Numbered from the stretch's first letter, positions 3,136 to 19,806 are shown. The stretch: DNA of 64,000 nucleotides from an uncultured Candidatus Saccharibacteria bacterium (GCA_964639285.1 CAZXCI010000004.1:5252-69251); one strand, 5' to 3'. Numbers and translations are program-made. Notes: generated by a model from the sequence alone, not told the origin.

Positions 3136-3211
3136 AATAAAAATGAAGCTAAATTAATAATAGCCTCATTAAATCAGAGGGCTAAAATTCAATTCGGAAA
3201 ATAACAGGTTG

Positions 3212-3982: not shown

Positions 3983-4078
3983 AGGTAGTTAAAAAAAGAG
4001 AAAAACCTTATATTTCAAGGTATTTTTGATTGCTTGAAAACGAAAAATATGGTATAATAGGGTCATTATTAGCTAATT

Positions 4079-4330: not shown

Positions 4331-4343
4331 AACAAATTTATTG

Positions 4344-5402
4344 ATGAAAAAGAAGTTTGATTTAAAGAAAAAAATCACAGAGGATGCTATCAGTGAATTT
4401 TTAAAGCAAAAACCTGACTTAAGCCTTTTTCATCGTGAGCAGACAGATTTAGAATTTAAAGAATCATTTAATCTTGCCGGATTGGCAGAGTATTTTCGTG
4501 ACTTTGCGGGATTCTCCAATAATTCTGGAGGTTTTATTATTTTTGGAGTAACAAATAGACCAAGGCGCCCCAACGGTTTATCAAAAAAGAGTTTGGTTCA
4601 ATTTTCAAGTATCGATGAAGAGAGAATTTCTGGTTATATTAATGAACACTTTGCTCCTTATATAGAATGGGAAATGGATACATTAAAAATTAAAGGCAAA
4701 ACGTTTGGTGCTTTTTATGCCTACCAGTCTTCTAACAAACCTGTTATTTGCAAAAAGGGAGATGATAAACAGATCATAAAAAACGGTGAGGTATATTATC
4801 GCTATGCAGGAAGAACAGAAGTTATCCAATATTCTGAACTTTCCAACATTATCGAAAATAGGATTAAAGAAAACAATAAACAATGGATTCAGAAGGTTAA
4901 AAAAATAGGAGAAATTGGTCCCGGGAATGCTGGTATTCTTGATACCGCAAATGCGACAATCGAAAGTGGAAATGGAACACTTTTAATAGATCAAGATCTT
5001 ATAAAGAATATTAATTTTATAAAAGACGGAGAATTTGATGAGAAAAAAGGTTCAAAAACTTTAAAACTAATTGGATCTGTAAAACCTGTAAATAAGTTGG
5101 AGGTCGAAAAAGTAATCAAAGAGAGATTAATAGATGAATACCCTTATTCATACAAACAACTAGAGGGAGAGATCAGGAAAAAAGACCCTCGAGCAAAGAT
5201 CAGCCGAATACAAGGAATAATTAAAGAGAACAATTTAAAAAATGATAAAAAATATTCAGCTTACAATTTTAGAAACAGGAATCAAGAGGAAAAGTATAAA
5301 GAAAATAAAATTATACCAAGTTCGGTCCCTTCTATTTTTAACATGGCAGCGATACAGTTTGTTTTAAAAGTCCTCTCTCAAGAAGTTATAGACAAATCTT
5401 AA
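4344..5402 (+). CDS. AlbA_2 (Schlafen-like divergent AAA) domain protein
   Basis: REQTDLEFKESFNLAGLAEYFRDFAGFSNNSGGFIIFGV matches the AlbA_2 signature (E.LEFK...AFAN..GG.l.iGV). Start taken at the internal MKKKFDL of ORF 4230..5402. Confidence 0.55.
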   Translation: MKKKFDLKKKITEDAISEFLKQKPDLSLFHREQTDLEFKESFNLAGLAEYFRDFAGFSNNSGGFIIFGVTNRPRRPNGLSKKSLVQFSSIDEERISGYINEHFAPYIEWEMDTLKIKGKTFGAFYAYQSSNKPVICKKGDDKQIIKNGEVYYRYAGRTEVIQYSELSNIIENRIKENNKQWIQKVKKIGEIGPGNAGILDTANATIESGNGTLLIDQDLIKNINFIKDGEFDEKKGSKTLKLIGSVKPVNKLEVEKVIKERLIDEYPYSYKQLEGEIRKKDPRAKISRIQGIIKENNLKNDKKYSAYNFRNRNQEEKYKENKIIPSSVPSIFNMAAIQFVLKVLSQEVIDKS

Positions 5403-5403
5403 A

Positions 5404-6156
5404 ATGGATGTCAAATTTACTAATTCAGAAAATTGTCTAATCGGTGAAGAAGAATTTACTTATTTCAGAGATTTTGTCTCCCTCTTAAAACAAATTGAGG
5501 AAACTCTAAAAGAAATTGGGGCGAAAAAGTTTTTTTCAAGTCCTGATCAGAAAATTCAAAGAGCAAGAGAAAGCCTAGCAGAATTCTTTTTTATTTCCGG
5601 CCTAAAAAAAGATACTGGTAAGGACTGGTGGTTATTGCAACCTAAAGATGAATTTCCTGATTTTATTTTAATGACCGTCAACAATGACCCCCTAATGGTT
5701 ACTTTGGACCAATTTGAACTAGTTGAGATACAGGAAAGATGCCAAACATTCGATGAGATGCTCTCTATTGTTAATAAGAAAATTAAAAAGGGTTATCCAG
5801 AAAACTACAATCTTCTGATTTTCATTAACCACAAGGAGAGTATAAACTGGCTATCTCGTTTAGAAGAAAAAATTGAAAGCTTCCACCCTTTCAAATCGAT
5901 TTGGTCTATACATCTCCTTTTCCGTGATCCGAAGGATATTTTTAGTGCTGTCATAACACAAATAAGACCTTACCCCATTAAAAGAATAGAAGTTAAGTTT
6001 AGCGATGAAGAATTATATAAACAATCATCGATCTTGAATATTACCGAAAAAATAGAAACTAGCGAAGGAATTTTTCTCCAATTCAAATCTGGGGTGGTCT
6101 CTGAATTAAAAAAAGAATTGAGAAAAATTAAAAAAGAGAAAAAGGAACAACAATAG
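5404..6156 (+). CDS. hypothetical protein (operon partner of the AlbA_2 gene)
   Basis: 250-aa ORF; starts 1 nt after the upstream stop; no known domain recognised. Confidence 0.4.
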   Translation: MDVKFTNSENCLIGEEEFTYFRDFVSLLKQIEETLKEIGAKKFFSSPDQKIQRARESLAEFFFISGLKKDTGKDWWLLQPKDEFPDFILMTVNNDPLMVTLDQFELVEIQERCQTFDEMLSIVNKKIKKGYPENYNLLIFINHKESINWLSRLEEKIESFHPFKSIWSIHLLFRDPKDIFSAVITQIRPYPIKRIEVKFSDEELYKQSSILNITEKIETSEGIFLQFKSGVVSELKKELRKIKKEKKEQQ

Positions 6157-6166
6157 CAAATAAATA

Positions 6167-7273
6167 ATGGAAGAAAAATCTGGGAAAAACCTCAAATCAC
6201 ACCAATACTACTCAGACCTCTACGATCGCCACACTGTTGAAGAATGTCGGCGCTGGGTCAAAAAATCAGACGACAAAGAACAAATAAATAAAGGAGTTAA
6301 AGATCTCAAAATAACCCGAGCTAAGGCAAAAATCGTACTCAAGTGTGTTAACGAACTCTCGCTTTATTTCATTTCTGGTGAACGCTATGCCAATAAATCA
6401 ATGACAATTCGTGAATGGGAAGAAAGAGACAGAGCTCGAGATGAGTTACTAGAAAAGGCTAAAGCCCCCGATTCAATCGCTTGTTTATCTTGTGGTCGTC
6501 TAATGTTTGTTTCTTCTAAACACCTTGACCTTGGAGGTGTAAAAGGTCCCGAGCGTGTCCTCTTTATGTATGATTGCCCTCTTGGTCACTTACCTCGTCG
6601 AGCTTTCTATCACACAGGTGAAGAATGGCGTCGTCCTCCTCACGAATGTCCTAAATGTAAATCTGAATTTAAAAGAGAAACCGAGCGAGAAGAAGGAAAG
6701 AAAATTGTTATGAAATACGCCTGTCACAAATGTGGCTATGTCGAAAATGAAGAAATAGACCTAATTGATAAGCCTAAGGAAAAAGAGAAGATTGACCGAG
6801 ATTTTGCAAAAGATAGAGATCGTTTTTGTTTGTCTAAAGAGGAGGGTGAAAAATATCTTGAGGGAAAAGCGACATTAGAATCAATCGGACCCCTTCTTGA
6901 AGAATGGAAAGAAAGGGATGAGCACAAAGAAGAATACGAAGCTGTGTCTAAACTCAAGAAATTAAAAATAACCGAACTTGAGGAATTGTTAATTCCCACC
7001 TTAGAAAAAGCTGATTATACTAAGCTTCAATTCAAAGATCCTGAGATGAATAAAGATGTTTTTCTTCCTTTTACTGTTTACGACAAACAAGCCAATCGGA
7101 GTGATCGAGAAAGCGAGATCAAACTCAAAAAATTGCTCGATAAGACCCTTGAAGATACTAATTGGCGACTTATGAGTGACGGGGTAAATTATCGCTTAGG
7201 AATGCTTAGTGGACGGCTAAGGGGTTATGAAAGAGAAGAAGATATGCTGAAAATTGTATATCTTTCTAATTAA
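6167..7273 (+). CDS. hypothetical protein with two zinc-ribbon-like Cys pairs
   Basis: CLSCGRL...DCPLGH and ECPKCK...CHKCGY pairs; charged K/E-rich C-terminal half. Confidence 0.4.
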   Translation: MEEKSGKNLKSHQYYSDLYDRHTVEECRRWVKKSDDKEQINKGVKDLKITRAKAKIVLKCVNELSLYFISGERYANKSMTIREWEERDRARDELLEKAKAPDSIACLSCGRLMFVSSKHLDLGGVKGPERVLFMYDCPLGHLPRRAFYHTGEEWRRPPHECPKCKSEFKRETEREEGKKIVMKYACHKCGYVENEEIDLIDKPKEKEKIDRDFAKDRDRFCLSKEEGEKYLEGKATLESIGPLLEEWKERDEHKEEYEAVSKLKKLKITELEELLIPTLEKADYTKLQFKDPEMNKDVFLPFTVYDKQANRSDRESEIKLKKLLDKTLEDTNWRLMSDGVNYRLGMLSGRLRGYEREEDMLKIVYLSN

Positions 7274-7296
7274 AAATCATTATTTAAAAATAAAAT

Positions 7297-8001
7297 ATGG
7301 AAAATAAAAAAGAATTCCTCGGGACACTTAAACAGATTTCGCCAAGGCTTTTAGTTGACGAGAAAGACGAAAAAGAAATCCAAAACTTCTTTCTTATCCT
7401 TGGCCTTATCTTTAACGATTTAAAAGGTCTGGTGTTTTTTCAAAAATTTCTTGAAGAAAATTACCGGAAACCAAAGGAAGATGAGACGACCGAACATGCT
7501 GGGGAATACAATGGGCTAATGGCTCAAGCTGATAGACTACTAATCTCCACAGTTGGCGAATTTTACAAATTTATAGAAAAAAATAAATCTGTATTAAACA
7601 GCTACCCTTTTTTATTTATTATTAAAAAACTTAGCCCAAATATCAGAAATAAATGGAGTGACCTTGTTAATTTAGAGCATGGTTCAACCATTTTGTCGAA
7701 AATAGCAAAAATCAGATCAAATGTTGCCTTTCATTATGATCACCCGATGAAAGTATTAAGGAAAGGATTTATTGGTAGCTTCTTTTCAGAAAGAAAGAAT
7801 ATCGCTCAACATCTGAAAGCTTGCTATTCTCTTGGTGAAGATATGGAACATACTCGCTTTTATTTTTCAGATGCATCCGCTCAAGACTACGTCAATTCTT
7901 TAATCGGTGCTGAAGATAGGGCAAAAATTAAGGGATCTGTAGAAGACATGAACAACACGATTCAGGCTTTGCTAAGGGCATATTTGGAAAATCTAAAATA
8001 A
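7297..8001 (+). CDS. hypothetical all-alpha protein, possible HEPN-like Rx4-6H motif
   Basis: RSNVAFH matches Rx5H; last gene of the tight four-gene operon. Confidence 0.35.
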   Translation: MENKKEFLGTLKQISPRLLVDEKDEKEIQNFFLILGLIFNDLKGLVFFQKFLEENYRKPKEDETTEHAGEYNGLMAQADRLLISTVGEFYKFIEKNKSVLNSYPFLFIIKKLSPNIRNKWSDLVNLEHGSTILSKIAKIRSNVAFHYDHPMKVLRKGFIGSFFSERKNIAQHLKACYSLGEDMEHTRFYFSDASAQDYVNSLIGAEDRAKIKGSVEDMNNTIQALLRAYLENLK

Positions 8002-8014
8002 TCTTTAATTTGTT

Positions 8015-8049
8015 AAAAAGTGTCACTTTTGTCACTTTTTGCTAGAATG
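8015..8049. repeat. 35-bp direct repeat copy 1 (palindromic operator-like, AAAAGTGtCACTTTT plus GTCACTTTTT)
   Basis: Identical 35-mer aaaaagtgtcacttttgtcactttttgctagaatg at 8015-8049 and 19948-19982. Here it is followed by TATAAT. Confidence 0.85.
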
Positions 8050-8068
8050 TATAATATATTTAGCCATT

Positions 8069-8599
8069 ATGGTTTTAGATGACAATATAAAACATTATAA
8101 AAAGGAACTCGGGGATCTACCCTTGTGGTTAAAATATGCAGTCGCTATCGCCACTATTTTTGGAACCATATTTGGCGGTTGGGGTGTATATATAGTTATT
8201 AGTGATAAAAACAATAAAGATCGATTGTTAGACAGCACGACTGCAACATCCTCAATTCCAATAAACATAACGAGTATATTATCTATGGCTCTTCATAAAG
8301 ATACTGCAATGGAACAGAGAGATTTTTTAAATAAGTATGAGGATGTTAAAGTCTTTGTCGATGGATATTTCAAAGATATATTGAATTACGGCGAAAACTA
8401 CCAAGTGTTTATAGATTCTTCCCTTTTACCTTTCAGAAATATACCGATTGTGTGCTCCTTAGACAATTTAAGCGAAGATGAAAAAAGAGAGTTATTCCTA
8501 TTCAAAAAACGTGACAAAGTATTACTTAGAGGTGTATTCACAGGTGGTAATTACAATGGAATTGCATGGTACGTGAAAGAGTGTCGCGTAGAAAAATAG
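8069..8599 (+). CDS. small membrane protein (cassette between repeat A and repeat B)
   Basis: ORF track 8039..8599 begins at TTG inside the repeat; the first ATG is at 8069. Hydrophobic segment (YAVAIATIFGTIFGGWGVYIVI). Confidence 0.4.
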   Translation: MVLDDNIKHYKKELGDLPLWLKYAVAIATIFGTIFGGWGVYIVISDKNNKDRLLDSTTATSSIPINITSILSMALHKDTAMEQRDFLNKYEDVKVFVDGYFKDILNYGENYQVFIDSSLLPFRNIPIVCSLDNLSEDEKRELFLFKKRDKVLLRGVFTGGNYNGIAWYVKECRVEK

Positions 8600-8600
8600 A

Positions 8601-8614
8601 GGTGCTCGAGTTGC
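8601..8614. repeat. 14-bp direct repeat B copy 1 (ggtgctcgagttgc)
   Basis: Exact repeat of 19985-19998. Lies 2 nt after the cassette gene stop. Confidence 0.7.
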
Positions 8615-8801
8615 TTCACCAATGATTATAAATTACACTAAAAATAACCTTATGGGGCTTGACCGAGAAAGGTTCTAGCTCTAGTCGGCCAGCCAGCTTG
8701 AGCTAGCTCAAAGATAACTAGTTTGAAGACAAAAAACACTTTTTATTTCGAAGGTGTTTTTTGTTGTTTTATATTACAACAAACTATGCTATAATCTTTG
8801 T

Positions 8802-9008
8802 ATGAAAGATGATGCCAAAAAGTTGGGAGAAAATCTCAAAAAACTTAGGATCAAAAAAGATATTAGCCAAATAGAACTCGCTCGTATGTTGAGTGTTGAT
8901 CGATCTTTTGTGAGTAATATCGAGAATGGAAAAAATAATCCAACTCTTTCAACCATTACTAGCTTAGCCAAGGCGTTAGGTGTTTCAACTAACGAACTTT
9001 TAAAATAA
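8802..9008 (+). CDS. XRE-family HTH transcriptional regulator
   Basis: ISQIELARMLSVDRSFVSNIENGKNNPTLSTITSLAKALGVSTNEL is a classic Cro/C1 HTH; TATAAT lies 11 nt upstream. Confidence 0.75.
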   Translation: MKDDAKKLGENLKKLRIKKDISQIELARMLSVDRSFVSNIENGKNNPTLSTITSLAKALGVSTNELLK

Positions 9009-9009
9009 T

Positions 9010-10320
9010 ATGTCGTCATCAATAACAAACACCGGTGATAATACGCTTTCGTCAAACTTAAAGAGCATTTTGCCTAATTGCGATAAGGTAGATGCTTTGG
9101 TTGGATATTTTTACTTCTCTGGTTTTCGGGATTTACATAATGAACTAAAAGATAAACAAATTAGAATCTTGGTTGGAATGGATATTGATAAGAAAATTAT
9201 TGATAAAGTATCAACACTCAAAGATTTAAACCTAGACTCATATACAACAGATACAAAAACATCTTCTCGCTCTATTGCAAAGGATGATTACATTGAGAAC
9301 TTTTCAAGGATTTTTAACGACACAGATTTTTTTGATAATGACGAATCTCAGAAAGCTTTTGAGATATTTTTTTCGCAGGCAGACGAGACTAAAGAGTTAA
9401 ATATTTATAAAATCGAACACAAGATCTTAACACTAACGACTTGCGCGGTTATGGAAGATAAAAATAATTTAACCTCTTTTGAAATTGACGGTGTTAAATT
9501 TTCTCATTGGGAATTTAATTATCGAGACGGTTGGACAAATGACGCTTGGTTAGCGACGGCAGAAATTTCAGCTGAAAGTTTTTTGGATGCTTTAAATGAA
9601 TTAGCGAGAAAACTTTCAAAATTAATCTCTCGTATTTCTTTAATTTCCCAATCTTATATTGAATATATCAACGAACCATTTCTTATTCATAAAAAAGGGA
9701 GTGACGTATTTTTCTTCCGCTACGTAGCAGATGCTCATGTTGGAGGATTGATGTTTATGGAAAATGAACAAAAAGCTTTAAATCAACTTCTTAATAATAA
9801 AAACGTTCCAGAACCTTTTTATTATTATTGGAATGATGCAATCAACGCTTCTGGGTATTCAGCCAAATTACTTCTCATGTTTTCTGCGATTGAGTCACTT
9901 GTTAAAGATAATGGTAAAAAAAATTGGAATTTAACAAATGAAATATTAGGAAAAGATCTAGTTAAAGAATTGTTTGGGACGAAAGAAAATTCAAATACTG
10001 GACTTAGGCACAGACTTGTCCATGGAGAATATTTTGGAAATCTCGATCATGGGAAAAATTATCTGGAACTCGTTCACAATAAAGTAATATCTTACTTTAA
10101 TAAAAAAGTTTTAGACGAAAAATTAATACTAGAAAATATTGTTAATCCTCAGAGAAATTTGTTTGGAAATAAAGAACAAGAAAATTTCTTCTTGAAGGGT
10201 AAAGTCGAGCATAGAGATTTAAATCTGAAAGAAGTACTCAAAGATTTTGATGAAAACCGACCAATTTTACCCCAAAATTATGAAATTATTTATGACAAAA
10301 ATCTAGTGAATGTCTATTAA
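9010..10320 (+). CDS. hypothetical 436-aa protein with PLD-like N-terminal signature, co-operonic with the XRE regulator
   Basis: VDALVGYFYFSGFRDLHNELKDKQIRILVGMDID resembles the a.GYF..SGf..l...l....iRiLvG N-terminus of PLDc_2/NgoFVII-type nuclease domains; starts 1 nt after the XRE stop. Confidence 0.4.
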   Translation: MSSSITNTGDNTLSSNLKSILPNCDKVDALVGYFYFSGFRDLHNELKDKQIRILVGMDIDKKIIDKVSTLKDLNLDSYTTDTKTSSRSIAKDDYIENFSRIFNDTDFFDNDESQKAFEIFFSQADETKELNIYKIEHKILTLTTCAVMEDKNNLTSFEIDGVKFSHWEFNYRDGWTNDAWLATAEISAESFLDALNELARKLSKLISRISLISQSYIEYINEPFLIHKKGSDVFFFRYVADAHVGGLMFMENEQKALNQLLNNKNVPEPFYYYWNDAINASGYSAKLLLMFSAIESLVKDNGKKNWNLTNEILGKDLVKELFGTKENSNTGLRHRLVHGEYFGNLDHGKNYLELVHNKVISYFNKKVLDEKLILENIVNPQRNLFGNKEQENFFLKGKVEHRDLNLKEVLKDFDENRPILPQNYEIIYDKNLVNVY

Positions 10321-10396: not shown

Positions 10397-12073
10397 TTAG
10401 ATAGTTCTAAGCAACTTGCGTGCCTTCTGCTCGGCCATGGCGACATACTCGTGAAAGTCGTCGACTTTGTTTAATTTGTTGTCAGCGATGAGATAAGCGA
10501 AATCGATTCTTGCCTTCTCAAGGAAATCGCGGTCATGAGATACCAAGATCACGGTTCCCTTGTAACTCGATAGAACTTCTTCAAGTGCTTCGACAGCTTC
10601 GGCGTCAAGATGATTGGTTGGCTCATCAAGCACTAAAGCGTTAACCGACAACAGAGAGAATAGGCTGAGCAATAAGCGAGCACGGCCACCCGGACTAATC
10701 TCAGAGATTTTGCCTCGGATGTCTTTCTCTCCGAAGCCAAACCTCACTAGGGCGGCGAAAACTTCCTGATCGATTCGTCCCGTTCGCTCTTTGATAAAAG
10801 CGAGCAAAGTTTCTTCGCGAGAGAGTGTCTCGTGCTCTTGCATCATGTTGCCGATCTTGAGACCAGAACCAATTGAGACTTGACCAGAGATCGGGGCCAG
10901 TTTGCCCGTGATCGTCTTGAGGAGTGTTGACTTGCCACTGCCGTTAAGCCCAAGAAAACCGACTCGATTGCCGTAACTGATGGCCAAACTAATCGGTCCA
11001 ATTTCAAACCGACCAGGATAACCAGCAACTACTTGGTCAAGCGAGATATCCATCGGACTACCATTGCTGTAGGCTTCAAGCGAGATAGACAACGGTTCGT
11101 GATCAACGACTCTTTCCACTTTATCCATTCGTTCGATCCGCTTCTCAAGAACCTTGGCCACCTTACCGGACTTTGACGATTTGTCTTGCTTGAAACCGCG
11201 CAAGAACTTATCATTGTCGCTACCTTGCCAACGAGAACCGCGAGTTGCTGCCGCTTTTTTCTCTCTGGCTTGTTCGGTGAGTCGGCTTATTTCCTCCTGT
11301 TGTTGACGATACTGCTCTTTCTGTCGGCTACGATCTTTCGCTTTTCGTTCGAGATACTCACTATATGAGCCGTTGCTCACATTGAGCAATCGAGTTTGTC
11401 GATCAAGTTCGAAAACTCGATCGGTTACTCGATCTAAGAAGCGTCGATCGTGCGAGACGATGATGCAGGCCACATCAGACTTCAACAAAAAATCTTCCAA
11501 CCAAATCAAGGCTGGCAGATCCAAGTTGTTCGTCGGCTCGTCGAGCAGAAGCAGGTCGATGCCGGTTAGCAGGATGCCTATCAGAGCAACTTTGCTCTTT
11601 TGACCGCTAGACAGATCGGATAACGGCCGATCAAGTCCAACATTGTCCATACTGAAACCAGACATCATCACTTCGGCTCGATGTTTGAGTGAGTAGCCAT
11701 CGAGATGGTCATAACGCTCATGGACGTTGGCATAGTGATCGCTTATCGCTTTGTCACTCAAACCAGTTTCCAGTCGAACCAACTCTTCTTCCAGTGCGGC
11801 GATACCTGTCACCCGGTGCAGATACTGCCAAATCGTCTCGGTCCCAGCCATGCTGGTATCTTGGGGCATATAGCCAAGACAGGTGCCTCGACTAATTTCG
11901 ACTTGACCGCTCTCTGCTACATCCAAACCAGCGATAATCTTAAGCAGGGTTGTTTTACCAACCCCATTACTACCAACCAAAGCCACTCTTTGCCCACGTT
12001 CCAAGCTAAAGGAGACGTCGGAGAACACGACTTTAGTACCGTAGCTTTTGCTGATTTTCTTAACTTTTAGCAT
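10397..12073 (-). CDS. ABC-F family ATPase (EttA/ARE-like translation factor; two ABC domains, no TM)
   Basis: Two Walker A motifs (GSNGVGKTT, GLNGSGKST), two LSGGQ-type signatures, charged ~85-aa interdomain linker; GC richer than the host. Confidence 0.75.
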   Translation of the reverse strand: MLKVKKISKSYGTKVVFSDVSFSLERGQRVALVGSNGVGKTTLLKIIAGLDVAESGQVEISRGTCLGYMPQDTSMAGTETIWQYLHRVTGIAALEEELVRLETGLSDKAISDHYANVHERYDHLDGYSLKHRAEVMMSGFSMDNVGLDRPLSDLSSGQKSKVALIGILLTGIDLLLLDEPTNNLDLPALIWLEDFLLKSDVACIIVSHDRRFLDRVTDRVFELDRQTRLLNVSNGSYSEYLERKAKDRSRQKEQYRQQQEEISRLTEQAREKKAAATRGSRWQGSDNDKFLRGFKQDKSSKSGKVAKVLEKRIERMDKVERVVDHEPLSISLEAYSNGSPMDISLDQVVAGYPGRFEIGPISLAISYGNRVGFLGLNGSGKSTLLKTITGKLAPISGQVSIGSGLKIGNMMQEHETLSREETLLAFIKERTGRIDQEVFAALVRFGFGEKDIRGKISEISPGGRARLLLSLFSLLSVNALVLDEPTNHLDAEAVEALEEVLSSYKGTVILVSHDRDFLEKARIDFAYLIADNKLNKVDDFHEYVAMAEQKARKLLRTI

Positions 12074-12191
12074 AGTTCTTAGTCTCCTTTCCCTTGTTGT
12101 TAGGCCTAATTGCCTAGAATTATAGCATTTACGAAGAACACCCCAAAGTGATTCTACTCTAATTTACCATAATGTAAATACTATAAAACTA

Positions 12192-12218
12192 AATCCCCGA
12201 GTAGTCCAGAGCTACTCG
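12192..12218 (-). terminator. rho-independent terminator of the rSAM-MTAP operon
   Basis: CCCCGAGTAGtccagagCTACTCGGGG, a perfect 10-bp stem followed by a U-run on the minus strand. Confidence 0.6.
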
Positions 12219-12240
12219 GGGATGGGAACAAAGGGATAAT

Positions 12241-13137
12241 TCAGCTTTCATAGTAGGCTTTGATGGAGGTTTCGGCGCATCGACACTGCATCCGACTGGA
12301 CATCAGATCGATAAAACCGAGAAGTAACTGCTTGGTTCTGGCGATATCGTCTCGAAAGACGGTCAGCACTGCTTCCCGATTCGATGTATTAAAAAGGTCC
12401 ATGGTTAAGGCCTTACCAACACCGACATCATAGTCGGTGATCGCGGCAATCGCTCCGTAGCACAACCCCAATTCGCGGGCAAAGTAACATTCGGGATATT
12501 GAGTCATGTTGACCAGATCCCAACCATTCTTCGCCAGCCACTCGCTTTCTGCTCGTGTCGAGAAGCGAGGACCTTGGATCACCGCAACTGTCCCAGTCGG
12601 GGTGACAGCTAACGGAATTCTCCTTGCCAGCTCGATTAAAAGCATTCGCATTTCGGTACAATAGGGGTTAGCCATCGGTAGGTGCAGAAACGAGTGGTCC
12701 GTCTCGAAATGATCGTCTCGACCCCACGTCAGATTGACGAATTGATCAAGAACAACCAAACTTCCCGGGACTAACTCCTTTTGCAAACTACCGGCGATAC
12801 AAGTCGCAACAATGTGACGAACACCGATTTCCTTCAATGCCCACAAATTGGCTTTGTAGGGCACGCGATGCGGTGGCCAGTTGTGCTTTTCTCCGTGTCT
12901 TGGTAGAAAAGCGACAACTTTTCCGGCATATTCTCCGATCAAGATTTGATCAGACGTTGGACCGTAAGGGGTGACAACATCAACCTTCTCAATCGGATTT
13001 AACTCGGAAAAACTGCATAGGCCGGAACCGCCGATGATCGCTAGCTCGGGTCTTTGGCCCGAAGCCAGTTTAACACTTGAACTTGGACCAGATGAGCTCA
13101 TTGAACACCTCCTGCGTAAAAACGCGACTAGATTCAT
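12241..13137 (-). CDS. mtnP: 5'-methylthioadenosine/purine nucleoside phosphorylase (MtnP/MTAP family)
   Basis: ELAIIGGSGL N-terminal PNP motif and family-like length; likely start at the internal MSSSGP (13101). Overlaps the rSAM gene end. Confidence 0.6.
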   Translation of the reverse strand: MNLVAFLRRRCSMSSSGPSSSVKLASGQRPELAIIGGSGLCSFSELNPIEKVDVVTPYGPTSDQILIGEYAGKVVAFLPRHGEKHNWPPHRVPYKANLWALKEIGVRHIVATCIAGSLQKELVPGSLVVLDQFVNLTWGRDDHFETDHSFLHLPMANPYCTEMRMLLIELARRIPLAVTPTGTVAVIQGPRFSTRAESEWLAKNGWDLVNMTQYPECYFARELGLCYGAIAAITDYDVGVGKALTMDLFNTSNREAVLTVFRDDIARTKQLLLGFIDLMSSRMQCRCAETSIKAYYES

Positions 13138-14395
13138 CCATCGCCATAAGGTTGCCAGTTAACTCGCGACAACCCCAGGCGCAACCAGCTCCACACAAAC
13201 TCTTGAAATCATCCTCACGGAAACCGGGGTGATAGAGTGGCAGACGTTTCCGCCACTCAGTGACAACTGACGTGTTCCAGATTCGGAAATCCGAGGCCAA
13301 CACTTGAACAGCACCAAGCTCTTCTCTCGCGAATGGACAATTGGACACCTGGCCGTTGGCCAAGACAACCAATTGATTACCGTAGCAAGTACAATCAACA
13401 GGGAAGAAATCTTGACCATCAAAGGCCTCAATCTTTTTCTCCATCTGGTAATCGCCATGATGCTTAGCGTTGGCGATTACCGCTTGGGCCGCTTGGTGAT
13501 AATAACGATCCAGACCATCAACTCCGACAATCTCAAGCAGAGCTTTCCCTTTTAGGAAATTGAAGCCGAATTTCTCGACTCCGAGTCCTTCAAAGAACTG
13601 GCTGTAACTCTCGAGCTGATCGATGTTGTGTGGGGTGATCGTTACCGAAGCGAAGGTCTTAACCCTATGATTAACAAGGGCATTGATCGCTTCAACCGTT
13701 CGCTCATAGGTGCCTTTCCCACCAGCATCGGGACGATAGATATCATTGATCTCGGGTGGGCCATCAAGCCCCACCGCTACCAACAAATCATATTCTCGAC
13801 ATAGACGCAGGAAATTATCGTTTACCAACGAGCCGTTGGTTGTCACCATCAGGAAGATACGCGAAGTCGGCAAAGCACCATTCTCGCGCAAACCTTTCAA
13901 GTAGACAAGGACATCCTCCATCACTTCGCAGTTCAGGAGCGGTTCGCCTCCATAGAAAATGACATAGTAATCAATCTCCGGGTCAGCGACTTCCCTCAGA
14001 TGATCCAGCCAAAGATTAACTCCGGCGATCGCGTTGTCTCGACTTAAACATTTTTCCGCTTGGGACAAAGAGGCTTTAGCCGGACAGTAACGACAACCAA
14101 AATTGCATCTTTGAGAAAGCATGAGGTACAAGATTACAGGTTGATTCAGCTTCTTTAACAGTTTAGCCGAGACCAACCGATACTCCGCCTCATCCTCTTC
14201 CACTGAGTTGATAACCAATTTCTTGGCCAGCAACCCATCCAGTATCTCTTGAGGAATATCTCCTATCGAACCAGTTGTGAGCCCCACCCATTCGCCATCA
14301 GGCAAATATATAGGACTCGGGTGAAGGTCGTGAAAGAGGGCCACCAAGCCACTCTTCCGGCGAACTCTCAGATAACGCGACCATTGTAGTGACAT
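13070..14395 (-). CDS. radical SAM/SPASM-domain enzyme (anSME/peptide-maturase type)
   Basis: CNFGCRYC matches CxxxCxxC; C-terminal Cys cluster (CTCYGN...NCPF, CGAGCAWGC). Start set at MSLQWS (14395), preceded by AGGAGGG; the longer track ORF has an implausible Arg/Pro-rich extension. Confidence 0.7.
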   Translation of the reverse strand: MSLQWSRYLRVRRKSGLVALFHDLHPSPIYLPDGEWVGLTTGSIGDIPQEILDGLLAKKLVINSVEEDEAEYRLVSAKLLKKLNQPVILYLMLSQRCNFGCRYCPAKASLSQAEKCLSRDNAIAGVNLWLDHLREVADPEIDYYVIFYGGEPLLNCEVMEDVLVYLKGLRENGALPTSRIFLMVTTNGSLVNDNFLRLCREYDLLVAVGLDGPPEINDIYRPDAGGKGTYERTVEAINALVNHRVKTFASVTITPHNIDQLESYSQFFEGLGVEKFGFNFLKGKALLEIVGVDGLDRYYHQAAQAVIANAKHHGDYQMEKKIEAFDGQDFFPVDCTCYGNQLVVLANGQVSNCPFAREELGAVQVLASDFRIWNTSVVTEWRKRLPLYHPGFREDDFKSLCGAGCAWGCRELTGNLMAMDESSRVFTQEVFNELIWSKFKC

Positions 14396-14502
14396 AAGCC
14401 CTCCTTTCTGTTTTGTCGCATCTATATTAAAAGCCCCCGCCAACACAGACGTCATTGTCCGTATCAGCAAAGGGCTTTGTTTTCGCGGCGCGGTGCCCGC
14501 GC

Positions 14503-14679
14503 TTACTCGGCGGTCTGTTTCAGGGCCATCCACTGGTCGTGTGTCAGCTTGACGTGGCCACCGTGGTCGTCCTTGATGTGGACCTCGCCGGGCGTGTTGA
14601 AGTCGACGGTCGGGCAACAACCCTGAACACCGCACAGCGTAACAACGCCCTTTTTCACCATACTCGTGGGAGCATCCAT
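14503..14679 (-). CDS. 58-aa Cys-rich small protein, candidate precursor/substrate peptide of the adjacent rSAM
   Basis: MDAPTSMVKKGVVTLCGVQGCCPTVDFNTPGEVHIKDDHGGHVKLTHDQWMALKQTAE; GGAGG lies 9 nt upstream of the second ATG; same strand, 107 nt upstream of the rSAM gene. Confidence 0.45.
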   Translation of the reverse strand: MDAPTSMVKKGVVTLCGVQGCCPTVDFNTPGEVHIKDDHGGHVKLTHDQWMALKQTAE

Positions 14680-14801
14680 GATACTTCTTACCTCCATATT
14701 ATAGGGAACATTGCCATATACCTTTTCTCCACATAGAGAAAGGTAATGACTCTGGTTAAAGGATAGTATGAATAAAGAGAGGTGTCAAGCTCTCATAGAT
14801 A

Positions 14802-15185
14802 TTATCTCCGGTCAAAATAGTCTTGTACCTTAGCCGCTAAAGCCATCGGCATTAGTTCGGTTTTGCCCCAGAATTCAGTCGCTCCCAGTGCCATAAATTT
14901 TTCTTTAACCTCTTTCTTGTCAAGATTAGTAAAAACAATGACTGGGATATCTTTAGTTTCAGGATCGACTTTCAGTCTTTTTAATACTTCTTCACCATCG
15001 ACATCTTCCATGACAATATCGAGAACGATAACTTTGGGATGCCATCTTTTAGCTTGTTGGATACCAACTTCACCACCATTGGCCATAACACTAGGAATTT
15101 TCATTAAGTCAAAAGCTGATTTGTATAAAAACATCTGATCCGAATCATCCTCAATCATTAATACTTGTTTTATTTCTTCGGCCAT
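14802..15185 (-). CDS. stand-alone response regulator receiver (CheY-like REC) protein
   Basis: VLMIEDD...KVIVLDIVMEDVDG...IPVIVFTN receiver motifs; no output domain. Confidence 0.7.
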   Translation of the reverse strand: MAEEIKQVLMIEDDSDQMFLYKSAFDLMKIPSVMANGGEVGIQQAKRWHPKVIVLDIVMEDVDGEEVLKRLKVDPETKDIPVIVFTNLDKKEVKEKFMALGATEFWGKTELMPMALAAKVQDYFDRR

Positions 15186-15216: not shown

Positions 15217-17376
15217 TTATTTAGTTTTTGGGATTGTAATTGTAAATTCAGTACCTTTACCTTCTTCACTAGTGAATGTAATTGTTCCACCAGAGTGAGC
15301 CTCGATGATTTCTTTAGTGATAAAAAGACCTAAGCCAGAACCATCAGTGTACATATCGACAGCATTTTTTGCCCGTTCAAATTTGCCAAACATCCTCGCT
15401 TGATCATCTTTCGGGATACCGACACCCGTATCTTTAACCTTAATGATAATACTTTGGGGATTTTCGTCCAGTAGCACTTCTACCTTACCCTCTTTGGTGT
15501 ACTTCAGCGCGTTATCAACCAGATTGAAGCAGGCCTGTTCCAAGTAATCGGGATCAGAATTGATTTGCGGATTGGCCAGATTAGGAGTAAAGATTAATTG
15601 TAGCTTCTTCTCATTGGCAAAGGTTTGATTGTCAGCAATGACATCAGTCAATATTTTGTTAAGCTCAACGGGTACGATCCTTTTCTCCACAAAACTAAAT
15701 TTCTCTGTATCAAATTCCGAAGCTTGAAGAATGTCGCGAATGATTTGGCTAATCTTAAGCGACTTTTGATAGATATTATCAATCAACTTATTCTGCGTCT
15801 CGACTGGCATTTTTTGGACCGAACCCTCTTTGAACATTGAGATAGTGCCAGAAATAACAGAGATTGGAGTTTTAAGTTGGTGAGAAGCGATGTCCAAAAA
15901 TTCTGACCTCATCGCTAACAATTTCTTTAAGTGTTCCGCTTGCTCTTCAAGCACCTTGGTCTTATCTTGCAAGCTCATTGTCTGCTCGTTGACTTTTTGT
16001 TTGAGTGTTTTGTTGAAATCCTTAACTTCCTTGTATAGTTCGGCGTTATCAATCGCGATCGCGGCTTGATTTGAGAGTGTCATTAGCAACTCAAGGTCTT
16101 CAACTGTAAATGGATCACCGATCACTTTTGGGCCTAAAATAATTAAGCCAATCAAACGCTCGTTACTAACCATGGGCAAACAAATTGTTGCCCCTAAACT
16201 CTTAACTTGCTCATAAACAGCACTAAAAATTTCTCGCTGTTCTTTTAATCTCTCGTCGTTAACTAAAATACTCAATTCTTCAAGTACCACCGGGCGTTGA
16301 TTAGTTTGCAGGTATTTTATAAGTGGGTCTTTTTTTACTGAACGGTCATTCTTCTGAAATAAATTAATCTCTACTCGGGTGATGCCAAGAGATTCTCTGA
16401 TTGTTGTCGAAACCAAATCATTAATTTTAGACAAGTCGGTATAGTGAGTTAATTGACCAGAGACCCGATTAATAGTTTCTTGGTAATTGTAGAGCGAAAA
16501 AAATAAATATTTATTGGCTAATTTTTCAATCCACTTGGAAGAATACTGGAAAAGTGTGACAAAAAGAACCGCAATGACAATTCCAAGGAGGAAAGATTTA
16601 TTAGAATAAGCTCCACCAAGTAGATTATTTTCAAACCAGAGAATAACGTAATAGGCGACATAAGCAATAACACTCGCTCCGGCAAAAATAAAAATCTTTC
16701 GAGCGACGATGCGAATGTCCATTAAGCGATAGCGGATAATTGAATAAGCCACGGTGGCAACATAAGCTGAAGTAAAGATATTAAAAATCGGCGGAATAGG
16801 GATATAATACCAGAGAAAATAATTAGTCGAACCGCCAGCAAAACCAAAAATCATACCTAGTAAAACATATTTAATTTGAAGTCGTTGCAAGCCTTCAGCA
16901 GAACGATAACGTTGATAAAGCAGATAGGAAGAATAGATGACGTAGGCTAACCAAATCGGCAAGAAGATATTAAAGATTGGACCAGCAATTGGCCAGAAAG
17001 CAAAGCCGAGAAGTGGTTCGACATGACTAATAAACAAAGGAGTAGCATTAAATAGAAGGAAGATAACAAAAAGAAAATAACTAAGAACCAGAAATATCTT
17101 TTGTTTTGGGATATTTAAAAAACGAAGGACAAAGTGTAAATAAGTAACCGGAATAAAAATTGCACCCGCCATTAATACTCGGCACCAAAATAGGGCTGAA
17201 TCAGGATTATTAGCAATCTGCCAGAGATAATAAAAGAAACTCCAAAAAGCGATAGTAAAAGCAAAGGCCGAAAAAGCCTGACTCGTTCGGTCTTTTTTAT
17301 TCTTAACTAAAACAAAAAGCCCAAGTCCCAAACTCGTTAAAAAATTAAATAGTGCCGAGAAAGCGTAAAAAGTCAT
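15217..17376 (-). CDS. sensor histidine kinase (multi-TM N-terminus, GAF, HisKA, HATPase_c)
   Basis: H-box SHQLKTPIS, G-boxes (DTGVGIP, GSGLGLFI), ~7 N-terminal hydrophobic helices. Confidence 0.75.
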   Translation of the reverse strand: MTFYAFSALFNFLTSLGLGLFVLVKNKKDRTSQAFSAFAFTIAFWSFFYYLWQIANNPDSALFWCRVLMAGAIFIPVTYLHFVLRFLNIPKQKIFLVLSYFLFVIFLLFNATPLFISHVEPLLGFAFWPIAGPIFNIFLPIWLAYVIYSSYLLYQRYRSAEGLQRLQIKYVLLGMIFGFAGGSTNYFLWYYIPIPPIFNIFTSAYVATVAYSIIRYRLMDIRIVARKIFIFAGASVIAYVAYYVILWFENNLLGGAYSNKSFLLGIVIAVLFVTLFQYSSKWIEKLANKYLFFSLYNYQETINRVSGQLTHYTDLSKINDLVSTTIRESLGITRVEINLFQKNDRSVKKDPLIKYLQTNQRPVVLEELSILVNDERLKEQREIFSAVYEQVKSLGATICLPMVSNERLIGLIILGPKVIGDPFTVEDLELLMTLSNQAAIAIDNAELYKEVKDFNKTLKQKVNEQTMSLQDKTKVLEEQAEHLKKLLAMRSEFLDIASHQLKTPISVISGTISMFKEGSVQKMPVETQNKLIDNIYQKSLKISQIIRDILQASEFDTEKFSFVEKRIVPVELNKILTDVIADNQTFANEKKLQLIFTPNLANPQINSDPDYLEQACFNLVDNALKYTKEGKVEVLLDENPQSIIIKVKDTGVGIPKDDQARMFGKFERAKNAVDMYTDGSGLGLFITKEIIEAHSGGTITFTSEEGKGTEFTITIPKTK

Positions 17377-17461: not shown

Positions 17462-18508
17462 TTAAGCCTTCTTGTGAGCGACAACGATACCGTGGATCAT
17501 AAGGGGCTCGTAAATCAGGCGGAAATCATCGAAGTAGGACTGCTCGATGACGTCAGCGAGTTCTCGTGGCGACCGATAGATCATTGGCCAGTTGATAACC
17601 CACTTGAGGAAGTGCTGTTCGAAGTTCGGAGCAATGTTGCAGGTCAGATACAGACCGCCAGGCATTAGTGACTGCCTGATTTGCGACGACAGATGGATCG
17701 CCGTTTCTTGTGGTAGGTAGTCGAGCAGGCCCAACATCTCTACCACATGCGGTTTGAAGTCACGAGCAAAGTCCAAATTCTTGAGTGCGTTCGCTTGCAA
17801 GGTTTGGATTCGATCACGAACTCCATACTGTTCTGCTAATTGCTCAGCGTAAGCCAGTGCGGCCGGATTGATGTCGACCAGAAGCACTTTGACCGTGATG
17901 CCTTGTCGCTTGAGACGTGACACCACTTTAATCACGGCTTCGGCCGATCCGCAAGCCAAGGACATAATCCGCACTTCCGGCTCATTCGCGAACTGCACCA
18001 GCGCCCGACGGACCTCCATGGTCACAACTTTCAAACGGTTACGCACCGCTTGAGCGTTGACCATACCGATCCAGAAATCATCTAGTAATCCGCCAATTGT
18101 GCGTTTTCCACCAAATTGGTGGTTGTAGATGATGTCAAGAGCCTTCCAACCGGCCGCCGTTCCCTTGATCTGCATCAATTCCGATCCAAGACCATCAAAC
18201 CAGAGAGTATTGATGGACGGACCAGGCAGACCGAGGGCTTGGCGCAATTGTTTCTTGGCCATCACCCAGAGGGTGAGTAACCAAGAGATTGGCAGGGTTA
18301 GCACATACGGCCAGTAGCGCTTCTCGTACACAGAACGAGATGTCCCGACAGTATGCCCAACCGTTCCCGCTTCTTCGGCCAACCAATTGGCTTCCGAGGC
18401 AATTTCGATAGTCAAACCTTGTCCGTTCATTGCTATTCTCTCCTTTCTCAGGTTGTTTTTCACAAAGACCAAGTTATTGTTTGATTCCATTTTCCATGGA
18501 ACCACCAA
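17462..18508 (-). CDS. class I SAM-dependent methyltransferase-like protein
   Basis: IMSLACGSAEAV...VKVLLVDINPAAL is a Rossmann-type motif I / post I; GC-rich; start may be the internal MNGQ. Confidence 0.45.
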   Translation of the reverse strand: MVVPWKMESNNNLVFVKNNLRKERIAMNGQGLTIEIASEANWLAEEAGTVGHTVGTSRSVYEKRYWPYVLTLPISWLLTLWVMAKKQLRQALGLPGPSINTLWFDGLGSELMQIKGTAAGWKALDIIYNHQFGGKRTIGGLLDDFWIGMVNAQAVRNRLKVVTMEVRRALVQFANEPEVRIMSLACGSAEAVIKVVSRLKRQGITVKVLLVDINPAALAYAEQLAEQYGVRDRIQTLQANALKNLDFARDFKPHVVEMLGLLDYLPQETAIHLSSQIRQSLMPGGLYLTCNIAPNFEQHFLKWVINWPMIYRSPRELADVIEQSYFDDFRLIYEPLMIHGIVVAHKKA

Positions 18509-18591
18509 ATATAAGACTAGTCAAGTTTTTGTGCACAAAACTAAAGGGGGCCTGGATTTCTCCACACCCCCCGTTTCTCCTTTCTCTTGTT

Positions 18592-19806
18592 CTAGTTCAT
18601 TTTGCCACCGAAGTAATAGGTCACTCCGGCCGACACAATCCCCACATCAACTACGTTACGACCTGGCGCCAATATCCCGCAATCTGGTTCAGTCTCTCGA
18701 CTGATTTGACCGTAGAGCAGAGCGAGATCAATCCCCAAGTTGCCTTGGTGATTCTTCCAGCCAACGCCGACTGAACCGCAGTACCCCATACCATCAGGAA
18801 TGATCGGGACGGTCTTCGCTTTGGGCACTGATGGCCAGAGACCAGCCAGACCAAAACGCAGTTTCCAGTTCTCATTGATCGTCCTCTCAACACCAAGATG
18901 AAGGCTAGTATTGTTGCTCCAGTTCATCGTTTGCGTGATAGTGATCCAGTCAAAGTCAAACTTGATCTTGTCTAGCCCAGAGTAGTCATAGTGGTTGAAG
19001 TCGAGAGCAATGAGCCACTTGTCGGCTGGCTTGATAGCGACACCCAGACCCAGACGACCTGGAAAACCAATTGAGGTTTTTCCACGAAGTTCGCCCAGAC
19101 CTAAGCCAAGAACAGAGACATCGCTCTGGCAATCCATCTCCACCTTGCGTTTTGAGGCATAGCTGACGCCAAAGGCGAGCCAGTCATACGGTTCATAACG
19201 AAGGCCTAAGCGATACCCTAAACCCCAACCATCAGCTTTGTTTCTGAGAAAGACACCATCGATCGGAAAACCAAGTTGATCGAAGACGGCATTCTCAATC
19301 ATCTGACCGTAAACGACATCGAGGCCGATTCCGACAGACAGTTCGTCGCTAATCTGCCAGGCAATGGTTGGTGTGAAGTTAATCGAAGCGAGCAGGCTCT
19401 TTTGATACTTCAAGCCTTGGTACTCGACTCCGAGACCATCACTTGGGTACAGAGACAGACCCAGCGTCAGTTTGTCATCTAACTGATGAGTTAACGCAAA
19501 CATCGGCATCGGGAACAGTCCTAGCTCCGACTCGTGTTCAGTGTTGCTCCCAGATTCTCGAAAGTGAGCCTTGGTCACAATCGTGTCCAAGTCAAACTCC
19601 AAGAAGTCAGGAGCTTGGCTGATGTTGGCGACGTTGTGGTAAAAGGCGGCACCGTCACCAGAAACCGCGTTATGAGCACCACCCATACCGAGAGCCCGAG
19701 GACTCAGACTACCACCAGGACGGATGTTGCCACCCGCCCAAACGTTGTTAGACATAACCATGACCGACAGGGCCACGATTATGGCCAGTTTCCACCATTT
19801 TTTCAT
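18592..19806 (-). CDS. FadL/TodX-like outer-membrane beta-barrel transporter
   Basis: Signal peptide MKKWWKLAIIVALSVMVMSNNVWA; GMGGAHNAVSGDGAAFYHNVANIS matches the FadL N-terminal signature (G.GGA..A..D..A.f.NPA); alternating beta-strand pattern; GC-rich. Confidence 0.5.
   Translation of the reverse strand: MKKWWKLAIIVALSVMVMSNNVWAGGNIRPGGSLSPRALGMGGAHNAVSGDGAAFYHNVANISQAPDFLEFDLDTIVTKAHFRESGSNTEHESELGLFPMPMFALTHQLDDKLTLGLSLYPSDGLGVEYQGLKYQKSLLASINFTPTIAWQISDELSVGIGLDVVYGQMIENAVFDQLGFPIDGVFLRNKADGWGLGYRLGLRYEPYDWLAFGVSYASKRKVEMDCQSDVSVLGLGLGELRGKTSIGFPGRLGLGVAIKPADKWLIALDFNHYDYSGLDKIKFDFDWITITQTMNWSNNTSLHLGVERTINENWKLRFGLAGLWPSVPKAKTVPIIPDGMGYCGSVGVGWKNHQGNLGIDLALLYGQISRETEPDCGILAPGRNVVDVGIVSAGVTYYFGGKMN

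Follow-up and report, generated by a model that had tools for sequence, protein, structure and literature searches.

We analysed a 64,000-nt stretch of DNA (below, the window, meaning the whole stretch) from an uncultured Candidatus Saccharibacteria bacterium (GCA_964639285.1, CAZXCI010000004.1:5252-69251) and, in it, a minus-strand cassette of three genes (14788-12193) encoding a 58-aa mini-protein with a Cys loop, a radical S-adenosylmethionine (SAM) enzyme as well as a phosphorylase of the PNP/MTAP family. The trio was present, in the same gene order, in all the related loci with sufficient sequence, that is in about 40 distinct loci of the candidate phyla radiation (CPR, or Patescibacteria). 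On balance, and with some reserve, we favour an intracellular modification of the invariant Cys loop of the mini-protein, similar to that of peptides made by the ribosome and modified after translation (RiPPs), in which the 5′-deoxyadenosine left by the radical enzyme would be removed by the phosphorylase. Inspection of the ORFs and of the sequence located on the minus strand every element listed in the initial annotation of this region, that is the genes, the hairpins, the terminator and the adjacent two-component system.

The small gene has a GGAGG ribosome-binding site (RBS) at 14695-14691, 11 nt 5′ of its ATG, and a second possible ATG at 14697 would give a protein of 64 aa. A spacer of 107 nt (14396-14502), which contains a 17-bp stem-loop followed by CTTTTAATAT (14473-14434), separates the small gene from the radical SAM gene. 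We considered as the start of the enzyme the ATG at 14395, favoured by both the homologues and the RBS; a 521-aa ORF starting with GTG was rejected as an artefactual upstream extension into the small gene. The phosphorylase gene, initially described as fused, shares 32 nt with the 3′ end of the radical SAM gene, in a different reading frame. The coordinates of all the features are reported in Table 1; no further copy of the small gene was found within the window.

A profile of the small protein was scanned against one genome per species and returned 14 loci. In 13 of these the small gene was followed by a radical SAM gene, always in CPR metagenome-assembled genomes (MAGs), a few of them mislabelled by the submitters, and the PNP gene was also present, in the same order and on the same strand, in each of the 13 with sufficient downstream sequence. 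The remaining locus (L018, on a high-GC actinobacterial contig) was discarded, as it was a 29-residue chance match in a long spurious ORF and had no radical SAM gene. When the loci were looked up from the enzyme, the small gene was upstream in every context examined, even where it had not been called; metagenome loci anchored on the ABC-F ATPase gene, which lies downstream of the cassette, contributed about 20 additional cassettes. The pooled loci contained 51 cassette-linked copies of the small gene, corresponding to 38 unique cores, or 39 including that of the window. Submitters had labelled the cassette genomes as Woesebacteria, Paceibacteria, Minisyncoccales, Uhrbacteria, Yonathbacteria, Howlettbacteria and Saccharibacteria. 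The closest relative was the Woesebacteria MAG GW2011_GWA1_39_21b, with identities of 91% for the ABC-F, 88% for the PNP, 79% for the enzyme and 60% for the small protein; by these values the window most likely belongs to a genome of Woesebacteria type.

The context covered in each locus consisted of 6-10 kb flanks around the cassette. Since the flanking genes varied from one locus to another, we considered the module as a conserved unit, and since the arrangement recurs in dozens of other genomes, we considered it as non-random; the co-occurrence of peptide, radical SAM and MTAP genes that the initial annotation had proposed to look for is borne out. Presence and absence among close relatives indicate that the module is accessory. 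Judged by profile scores, it belongs to no curated family, as every equivalog test for maturases failed, and in the literature on radical SAM enzymes with ABC-F proteins, Patescibacteria, MTAP and ranthipeptides we found no paper describing this cassette.

The small protein had 17 close homologues, sharing the invariant stretch LCGxQGCCPTVDF...DDxGGxVxL...W..L, and in the 39 unique cassette-linked cores L15, C16, C21, C22, P23, D37, D38, G40 and L45 were invariant. AlphaFold2 (AF2) predicted a β4-α mini-domain (predicted local distance difference test, pLDDT, 78); conservation covered this entire predicted domain, while variation was confined to the first 5-25 residues. A profile search among 1.84 billion cluster representatives gave a family of at least 343 members at E ≤0.001, each 47-127 aa in length, with the consensus LCGxxGCCPTVE...V.I.DDfGG.V.LT..qW..L. 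With 17 close homologues and 51 cassette-linked copies the ORF is conserved, nor is it a piece broken off some longer protein, all the 343 representatives being in this range of lengths; these were two doubts that had been raised about it. The window protein did not match Pfam DUF397 (PF04149), and weak matches to this model were obtained for 5 of 127 family members (best E 0.011). Many C-termini of the family were DUF397-like, and the family profile aligned with a bona fide DUF397 protein encoded in locus L051 with an hhalign probability of 76.6% (E 2e-5). By these comparisons the family appears remotely DUF397-like. The family profile had no match among PDB sequences, and a comparison of the small protein, and of its relatives from phages, with PHROGs was uninformative. 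Three loci (L024, L026 and L105) encoded a second sequence type of small protein within a nonetheless full cassette. The cassette-linked branch is thus one subfamily, or several, of the small-protein family.

For the radical SAM enzyme, Pfam found the radical SAM core only (PF04055, 65.3 bits with a threshold of 29.5), and C97, C101 and C104 of its CX3CX2C motif were invariant in 54/54 homologues. The initial annotation had attributed to the enzyme a 7-Cys SPASM/twitch C-terminus: seven Cys are indeed present in the C-terminal region of the window enzyme, but only C335, C337, C353 and C405 were invariant in the 54 homologues. SPASM domains bind two auxiliary [4Fe-4S] clusters through seven to eight C-terminal Cys, arranged as CX9-15GX4C, followed by CX2CX5CX3C and a last C. 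The first of these motifs can be recognised (C337-x10-G348-x4-C353). The second, CX2CX5CX3C, is absent, the window enzyme having CGAGCAWGC, and only C405 of this block was invariant (C401 52%, C409 13%); the Pfam SPASM model (PF13186) gave 16.8 bits, under its cut-off of 21.5. Because of the four conserved C-terminal Cys, of the missing block and of the sub-threshold SPASM score, the enzyme should carry one auxiliary cluster, twitch-like, and not two.

The AF2 model of the enzyme had a pLDDT of 92.9, and its first ~85 residues were in β3α3 order, which is the topology of a RiPP recognition element (RRE), the PqqD-like winged-helix domain with which such maturases bind their precursor. The best fold matches (score, aligned length) were ChlB, whose solved structure includes the leader peptide (31.3, 337), CteB (29.3, 384), anSME (28.1, 326), TigE (27.8, 393), SuiB (21.3, 293) and SkfB (20.1, 273); small-molecule radical SAM enzymes scored ≤19. 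The greater aligned length with CteB and TigE, which bear an RRE, than with the RRE-less anSME fits an RRE in the predicted structure, in agreement with the earlier suggestion that the N-terminal extension might be one. ChlB is a multiple cyclophane synthase (PMC12912966). The top NCBIfam matches were peptide maturases throughout, each far under the cut-off: FibroRumin (118 vs 400 bits), PapB (NF047865, 99.5 vs 340), QhpD (TIGR03906, 80 vs 453), anSME (TIGR03942, 75 vs 349.45) and ScfB (TIGR03974, 74.3 vs 425). The enzyme therefore does not group with the anSMEs, a grouping that would have spoken against the initial annotation, and no sulfatase gene is linked to it. Among 8,000 candidates scored, its family consisted of 519 proteins at E ≤1e-10. 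The best 120 relatives, all above 435 bits, were 356-468 aa long (nearly all 425-468), and, at 90% identity, no fewer than 120 clusters of the family exceed the same score. A divergent cassette was observed in L049/L051 (L051 2424-2645 and 3891-7683), with an enzyme of 333 aa and a phosphorylase 24% identical to that of the window; the bona fide DUF397 protein of L051, which has a CCC motif (Pfam E 2.4e-11), is encoded 1.3 kb upstream of it.

The phosphorylase scored just under the cut-offs of the MTAP equivalogs (283.3 vs 306 and 246.9 vs 274.85 bits, TIGR01694 / NF005876), and its closest solved structures were archaeal and human MTAPs (E 5.5e-56 to 2e-50). Human MTAP, the numbering of which is used here, was compared in an alignment with 40 phosphorylases from cassettes. 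R60, H61, H65, F177, M196, T197 and D220 were invariant and D222 was kept in 38/40, and the position of human Thr93 was Cys in 40/40. Thr93 is a phosphate ligand of human MTAP, and V233 a residue of the 5′-pocket. With the exception of Thr93 the phosphate, ribose and adenine ligands are thus kept, V233 gives way to M or R, and there is no counterpart of the C-terminal segment around L279, which extends into the adjacent subunit in the human enzyme. In every locus with sufficient sequence the phosphorylase gene followed the enzyme gene, overlapping or abutting it, and the ABC-F loci that have no cassette (L032 and L036 included) lacked it as they lacked the other two genes. Because of this absence we concluded that it is the enzyme, rather than the ABC-F, that the phosphorylase accompanies, and the tie between MTAP and radical SAM enzyme that had been proposed from the overlap of the two genes is supported by their being gained and lost together. 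MtnP cleaves 5′-deoxyadenosine, the radical SAM co-product, as well as 5′-methylthioadenosine (MTA) (PMC8102628), so the removal of this co-product, as initially proposed, is a reasonable role; that the cassette phosphorylase acts on 5′-deoxyadenosine is plausible by this precedent, although its coupling to the enzyme is tighter than is usual.

The spacer that follows the small gene had a minimum free energy of -41.7 kcal/mol (z = -3.5 with respect to shuffled sequences). A strong GC stem-loop with a T-run was found in 19/19 distinct spacers (the window and 18 loci; 76-157 nt; z from -2.1 to -5.1). The sequences of the stem-loops diverge between loci while the structure persists, and the quality of the T-run varies, which fits a leaky terminator. 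Such a hairpin is the usual way to produce far more precursor than enzyme; its structural conservation supports the suggestion of the initial annotation that it is an attenuator setting the precursor/enzyme stoichiometry. Rfam, run over 11900-15000 and hence over the spacer, gave no match at E up to 1, that is no known riboswitch or other RNA. In most spacers a small hairpin is also present ahead of the large stem-loop. The sequence of this hairpin, immediately after the stop codon of the small gene, was conserved (CATCGTGCACGATG) in L005, L006, L008, L014 and L015, and related in L009, L011 and L017; the genomes sharing CATCGTGCACGATG encode proteins only 50-65% identical to those of the window. 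The element could be involved in RNA processing or stability, or could be a protein-binding palindrome.

The position of the cassette upstream of an ABC-F gene in most genomes escaped the initial annotation. The ABC-F gene was directly downstream of the cassette in 16/18 distinct loci with sufficient flank, and in the other two, L012 and L020, no ABC-F was found within 10 kb. As a test of its dedication to the cassette, we used the ABC-F as the anchor of the metagenome scan, considering the 32 loci with at least 3.3 kb of upstream sequence. The three-gene module was directly upstream of the ABC-F in 20/32 loci and missing in 12/32, and in the cassette-less L032 and L036 the ABC-F was 88-89% identical to that of the window. 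The ABC-F passed the generic NCBIfam model of ribosomal protection-like proteins (NF000355, 407 vs 380 bits), fell far under every cut-off of the Msr, Vga, Lsa, Sal, OptrA and TlrC-type resistance models, and had as closest solved structures YheS, EttA and YbiT. Its gene in the window is set apart from the cassette by a terminator together with a promoter-like site. We considered the ABC-F as probably a resident housekeeping translation factor, beside which the accessory module was placed and from which it was repeatedly lost; at most, the adjacency is a weak hint at a link with translation. In L058 (265-474) the ABC-F was immediately preceded by a small gene with an altered C-terminus, with neither a radical SAM nor a phosphorylase gene, and this small gene seems to be what a deletion has left of the cassette.

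Taken as a mechanism, the reading that we favour would work as follows. The small gene would be transcribed from its own promoter and most transcripts would stop at the leaky terminator, giving an abundant mini-protein of ~58 aa, while read-through would supply lower levels of the two enzymes, which are presumably translationally coupled. The RRE-like N-terminal domain would bind the mini-protein, probably at the β1 strand that immediately precedes Cys16 and is conserved (G-V-V-T-L), and the 5′-deoxyadenosyl radical, together with the single auxiliary [4Fe-4S] cluster, would then modify the L-C-x4-C-C-P loop. As the most likely product we propose an intramolecular thioether cross-link, a first guess that was made because both the Cys donors and the CteB-, PapB- and QhpD-like matches fit it. 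Conversion of a Cys into formylglycine at the anSME-like C-C-P-x-V motif would come second and is less likely, and the formation of a cyclophane is unlikely because the mini-protein has no invariant aromatic position (F27, H/F39 and W50 all vary). The MTAP would phosphorolyse the inhibitory 5′-deoxyadenosine to adenine and 5-deoxyribose-1-phosphate, so sustaining turnover and giving adenine back to a salvage-dependent cell. Once modified, the mini-protein would remain intracellular, because neither a leader protease nor an exporter is encoded in linkage with the cassette: among the recurrent neighbours in 20 loci we found no protease, exporter/transporter or sulfatase gene. The initial idea of a RiPP precursor is hence kept as far as the modification is concerned, and is modified as to the type of precursor, since a folded member of a DUF397-like family, with neither protease nor exporter, is not a classic leader-core peptide.

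Several points weigh against this reading. The C...CCP motif also occurs, in more distant members of the family, where there is no adjacent radical SAM gene, namely in T4-like phages (L028, L029/L030 and L107) and in a family member from a bacterial MAG, upstream of rpoB (L106). The fold and the Cys motif of the small protein exist independently of the enzyme, and since these stand-alone members keep the motif, the Cys loop serves a purpose in itself, possibly the binding of a metal, and is not necessarily the site of a modification. The small protein is moreover predicted to be folded and is conserved over its full length, unlike typical leader-core precursors, and it has no leader-cleavage motif. 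Position 26 (Cys22 + 4) can be D, E, S, N, V or I, so that there is no conserved thioether acceptor; a PapB-type Cys-x3-Asp ranthionine site (C22...D26) was ruled out for this variability. The four conserved C-terminal Cys would ligate the auxiliary cluster fully, so that a substrate thiolate would find no free iron site, in contrast to CteB. As the enzyme of L049/L051 has no RRE-like domain, the RRE is not essential to the partnership. Furthermore, a dedicated MTAP is unusual in RiPP clusters and could signal something besides the removal of a by-product, and the chemistry of the modification is one that we infer from sequences and models. As to the phage members, we observed that they lie among small genes of unknown function (L028 8001-8198, L029 8001-8219, L107 6001-6219), and that one of them, in a T4-like phage, adjoins a gene for an Hc1 histone-like protein and a sigma factor gene.

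These stand-alone members, together with the enzyme lacking an RRE-like domain, are what one would expect if the mini-protein were an accessory or regulatory partner, either a DUF397-like regulator or a metal or Fe-S helper acting through its three Cys. The enzyme would in this case act elsewhere, on another protein or on a nucleoside-like small molecule, and the MTAP would process the product or the co-product. This explanation, which we regard as unlikely though worth keeping in mind, also agrees with the remote likeness to DUF397 reported above and with the nucleoside-metabolism genes found nearby (a PRK/uridine-kinase-like gene in 6 loci, besides HIT, NUDIX and nucleotidyltransferase genes). 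DUF397 proteins function together with XRE regulators in Streptomyces (PMC10364602, PMC10294661). It is contradicted by the RRE topology and the top fold matches, which indicate peptide or protein substrates, by the direct upstream position, the strict co-occurrence and the terminator-type attenuation, which are the standard signature of a precursor with its maturase, and by the neighbourhood, where no alternative substrate gene is conserved. A secreted RiPP antibiotic targeting the ribosome, with the ABC-F as self-resistance of the producer, seems to us improbable. ABC-F resistance genes within the gene clusters of producers are an established theme, and both the frequent position of the ABC-F directly after the cassette and its score with the ribosomal protection-like model speak for such a function. 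Because the ABC-F is resident and occurs without the cassette, however, even where it is nearly 90% identical to that of the window, and because two cassettes have no ABC-F nearby, this view is weakened; the failure of all the resistance-subfamily models, the housekeeping proteins as nearest structures, the terminator-promoter boundary that sets the ABC-F off and a folded small protein with no protease, exporter or leader-cleavage motif also argue against it.

The last explanation concerns the chemistry itself, and we consider it as still more improbable. The 5′-deoxyadenosyl radical could add to the sulfur of a loop Cys, giving a protein-bound 5′-thioadenosine, from which the MTAP would strip the adenine to leave Cys-S-(5-thio)ribose-1-phosphate. 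The MTAP would then be an enzyme of the pathway and not a scavenger, and its substrate would be in effect an analogue of MTA with the protein as the 'methyl'. There are precedents for the single steps, in HydE for the radical attack on a cysteine sulfur and in MqnE for an addition followed by a nucleosidase; to our knowledge, there is none for adenosylation and then MTAP on a protein substrate. This chemistry would explain the coupling of the phosphorylase to the enzyme, their common gain and loss, and the invariant change from Thr to Cys, to which the altered 5′-pocket, the missing C-terminal segment and the presence of cysteines among the invariant residues of the small protein can be added. 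It is nevertheless pure inference, it would require the MTAP pocket to accept a 5′ substituent of the size of a protein, and the simpler removal of a by-product accounts for all the data.

The genomes of CPR bacteria are among the smallest bacterial ones and have little biosynthetic capacity, so the retention of a modification module in many of their lineages is notable, as is the combination, an uncommon one, of a folded, DUF397-like candidate substrate with a dedicated MTAP and with a radical SAM enzyme that would have an RRE and one auxiliary cluster. If the mini-protein is indeed the substrate, the mini-proteins would be a new family of modified proteins and would offer the first functional handle on the wider Cys-loop/DUF397-like family, phage members included. 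If the MTAP acts on the co-product only, the cassette would be a clear natural case of built-in relief of product inhibition in a radical SAM enzyme; if it acts on an intermediate, the chemistry would be new, thio-ribose-1-phosphate on cysteine being an undescribed protein modification.

Table 1. Features of the cassette and of its neighbourhood, with positions counted from the first letter of the window.
Feature	Position	Strand	Details
N6/N4 DNA methylase	1858-3135	-	low-GC stretch
Schlafen/AlbA_2 protein	4230-5402	+	low-GC stretch
XRE helix-turn-helix (HTH) gene	8754-9008	+	low-GC stretch
436-aa ORF	9010-10320	+	after the XRE gene; no Pfam match
ABC-F ATPase gene	10397-12073	-	558 aa
Promoter-like site before the ABC-F gene	12151-12178	-	TTTACA, 16 nt, TAGAAT; consensus scan 10/12; pattern match only
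Intrinsic-terminator-like hairpin after the phosphorylase gene	12193-12223	-	12-bp stem, 7 GC pairs, T-rich tail
PNP/MTAP-family phosphorylase gene	12241-13101	-	286 aa; GGAGG 6 nt upstream; PF01048
Radical SAM gene	13070-14395	-	441 aa; AGGAGG 6 nt upstream; CNFGCRYC
Terminator-like stem-loop	14424-14473	-	17 pairs and T-rich tail; in the spacer ahead of the radical SAM gene; scan
Small hairpin immediately 3′ of the small-gene stop	14488-14502	-	GCGCGG-gcac-CGCGC
Small Cys-loop protein gene	14503-14679	-	58 aa, MDAPTS...KQTAE
Promoter-like site of the small gene	14760-14788	-	TTGACA, 17 nt, TATCCT; consensus scan 10/12; pattern match only
Response regulator	14802-15185	-	Pfam PF00072; upstream of the cassette
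Seven-transmembrane (7TM) histidine kinase	15217-17376	-	upstream; C-terminal half 27-33% identical to called HisKA/HATPase_c kinases of related loci
Methyltransf_20 gene	17462-18508	-	adjoins the FadL/TodX gene; GC ~0.49 for 17462-19806
FadL/TodX-type outer-membrane transporter	18592-19806	-	PF03349, E 1e-36

The two-component genes upstream of the cassette are context and not a fixed part of it: a 7TM histidine kinase like that of the window was found within 10 kb in 5 other loci (L011, L012, L013, L019 and L022), in variable position and on variable strand. The PRK/uridine-kinase-like gene comes immediately after the phosphorylase gene in L012, and a nucleotidyltransferase gene is upstream of the cassette in 3 loci; each such neighbour recurs only in a minority of the loci. 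In two lineages we observed a gene for a 2-oxoglutarate (2OG)-Fe(II) oxygenase (PF13640, prolyl-hydroxylase-like) in or beside the cassette (L003 10529-11194, L024 6936-7733). That it might target Pro23 of the mini-protein, or a translation factor, is pure conjecture. Upstream of a Woesebacteria cassette (L019 2053-9572) there are ThiF-like, nitroreductase-like, Peptidase_S9, NUDIX and M16_C genes, and in an Uhrbacteria locus (L020 18430-20649) a YcaO-nitroreductase fusion lies 7 kb downstream of the cassette; these may be further peptide-modification genes of CPR genomes.

The GC content of the cassette and of the ABC-F gene is 0.42-0.50, with a mean of ~0.43 for the window. The cassette, which had been described as the most GC-rich part of the window, is so only by a hair (0.497 at 13-14 kb, 0.495 at 18-19 kb). 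It had also been placed inside an island, and this assignment does not hold: the clear GC outliers are low-GC stretches, namely that of the kinase genes and the neighbouring one at 1.8-10.3 kb (0.31-0.38). The latter (1858-10320) abuts the ABC-F gene, contains several further ORFs with no Pfam match besides the genes in Table 1, and looks like a defence or restriction-type island. PADLOC found no known anti-phage defence system, giving only generic matches for the radical SAM enzyme (pVip, 38 bits) and the ABC ATPase. On the other side of the kinase gene, the FadL/TodX outer-membrane β-barrel is unexpected in a genome of CPR/Woesebacteria type, and horizontal transfer or a binning or assembly issue are possible explanations.

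In comparison with known systems, the cassette resembles in its architecture an RRE-dependent maturase of the radical SAM class paired with a precursor, and it is neither a full SPASM system, nor an anSME, nor a canonical RiPP cluster. From a canonical RiPP cluster it differs in that the small protein is conserved over its whole predicted domain, unlike a leader-core precursor, and in that no protease or exporter gene recurred in the 20 loci. The nearest thioether systems are CteB/CteA, of the SCIFF type, and PapB/PapA, the models of which, as reported above, the enzyme matched far below their cut-offs. SPASM thioether maturases have two sets of auxiliary-cluster Cys, and the cassette enzyme has one conserved set. 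Ranthipeptide precursors have a C-x3-D/E acceptor that is not conserved in the mini-protein, SCIFF peptides have six Cys and the mini-protein three, and the substrates of sactipeptide and ranthipeptide maturases are short and unstructured, whereas the mini-protein is predicted to be a folded β4-α domain. Moreover, unlike the CteB- and PapB-type systems, the cassette has a dedicated MTAP. As for the anSMEs, they act on a C/S-x-P-x-R target with a sulfatase as partner, have 8 auxiliary Cys and bear no RRE-like N-terminal domain; in the cassette the motif has no Arg, no sulfatase is linked, and the enzyme has 4 such Cys and the RRE-like domain. With respect to ChlB and the triceptide maturases, the enzyme is far below the cut-offs, and the mini-protein has no invariant aromatic-x-x site, its invariant residues including Cys.

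QhpD cross-links Cys residues in a small protein that is retained in the cell as a functional subunit. The enzyme resembles it in matching TIGR03906, although well short of the cut-off, and the cassette differs from QhpD/QhpC in that no dehydrogenase subunit genes are linked to it and the small protein is of another family. With the DUF397 proteins of Streptomyces (BldB and the XRE-DUF397 pairs) the mini-protein shares the size, the pattern C-x-V...V.I.D....L...eW.af and the nature of a small stand-alone domain; specific to the family of the mini-protein are the CC-P loop and the DD-GG turn, and the partner is a radical SAM enzyme instead of an XRE protein. Finally, the phosphorylase is like MtnP/MTAP in its membership at the superfamily level and in its conserved catalytic residues, and it differs from them in the Cys at the Thr93 position and in being coupled to one radical SAM enzyme, its gene not lying among those of methionine salvage.

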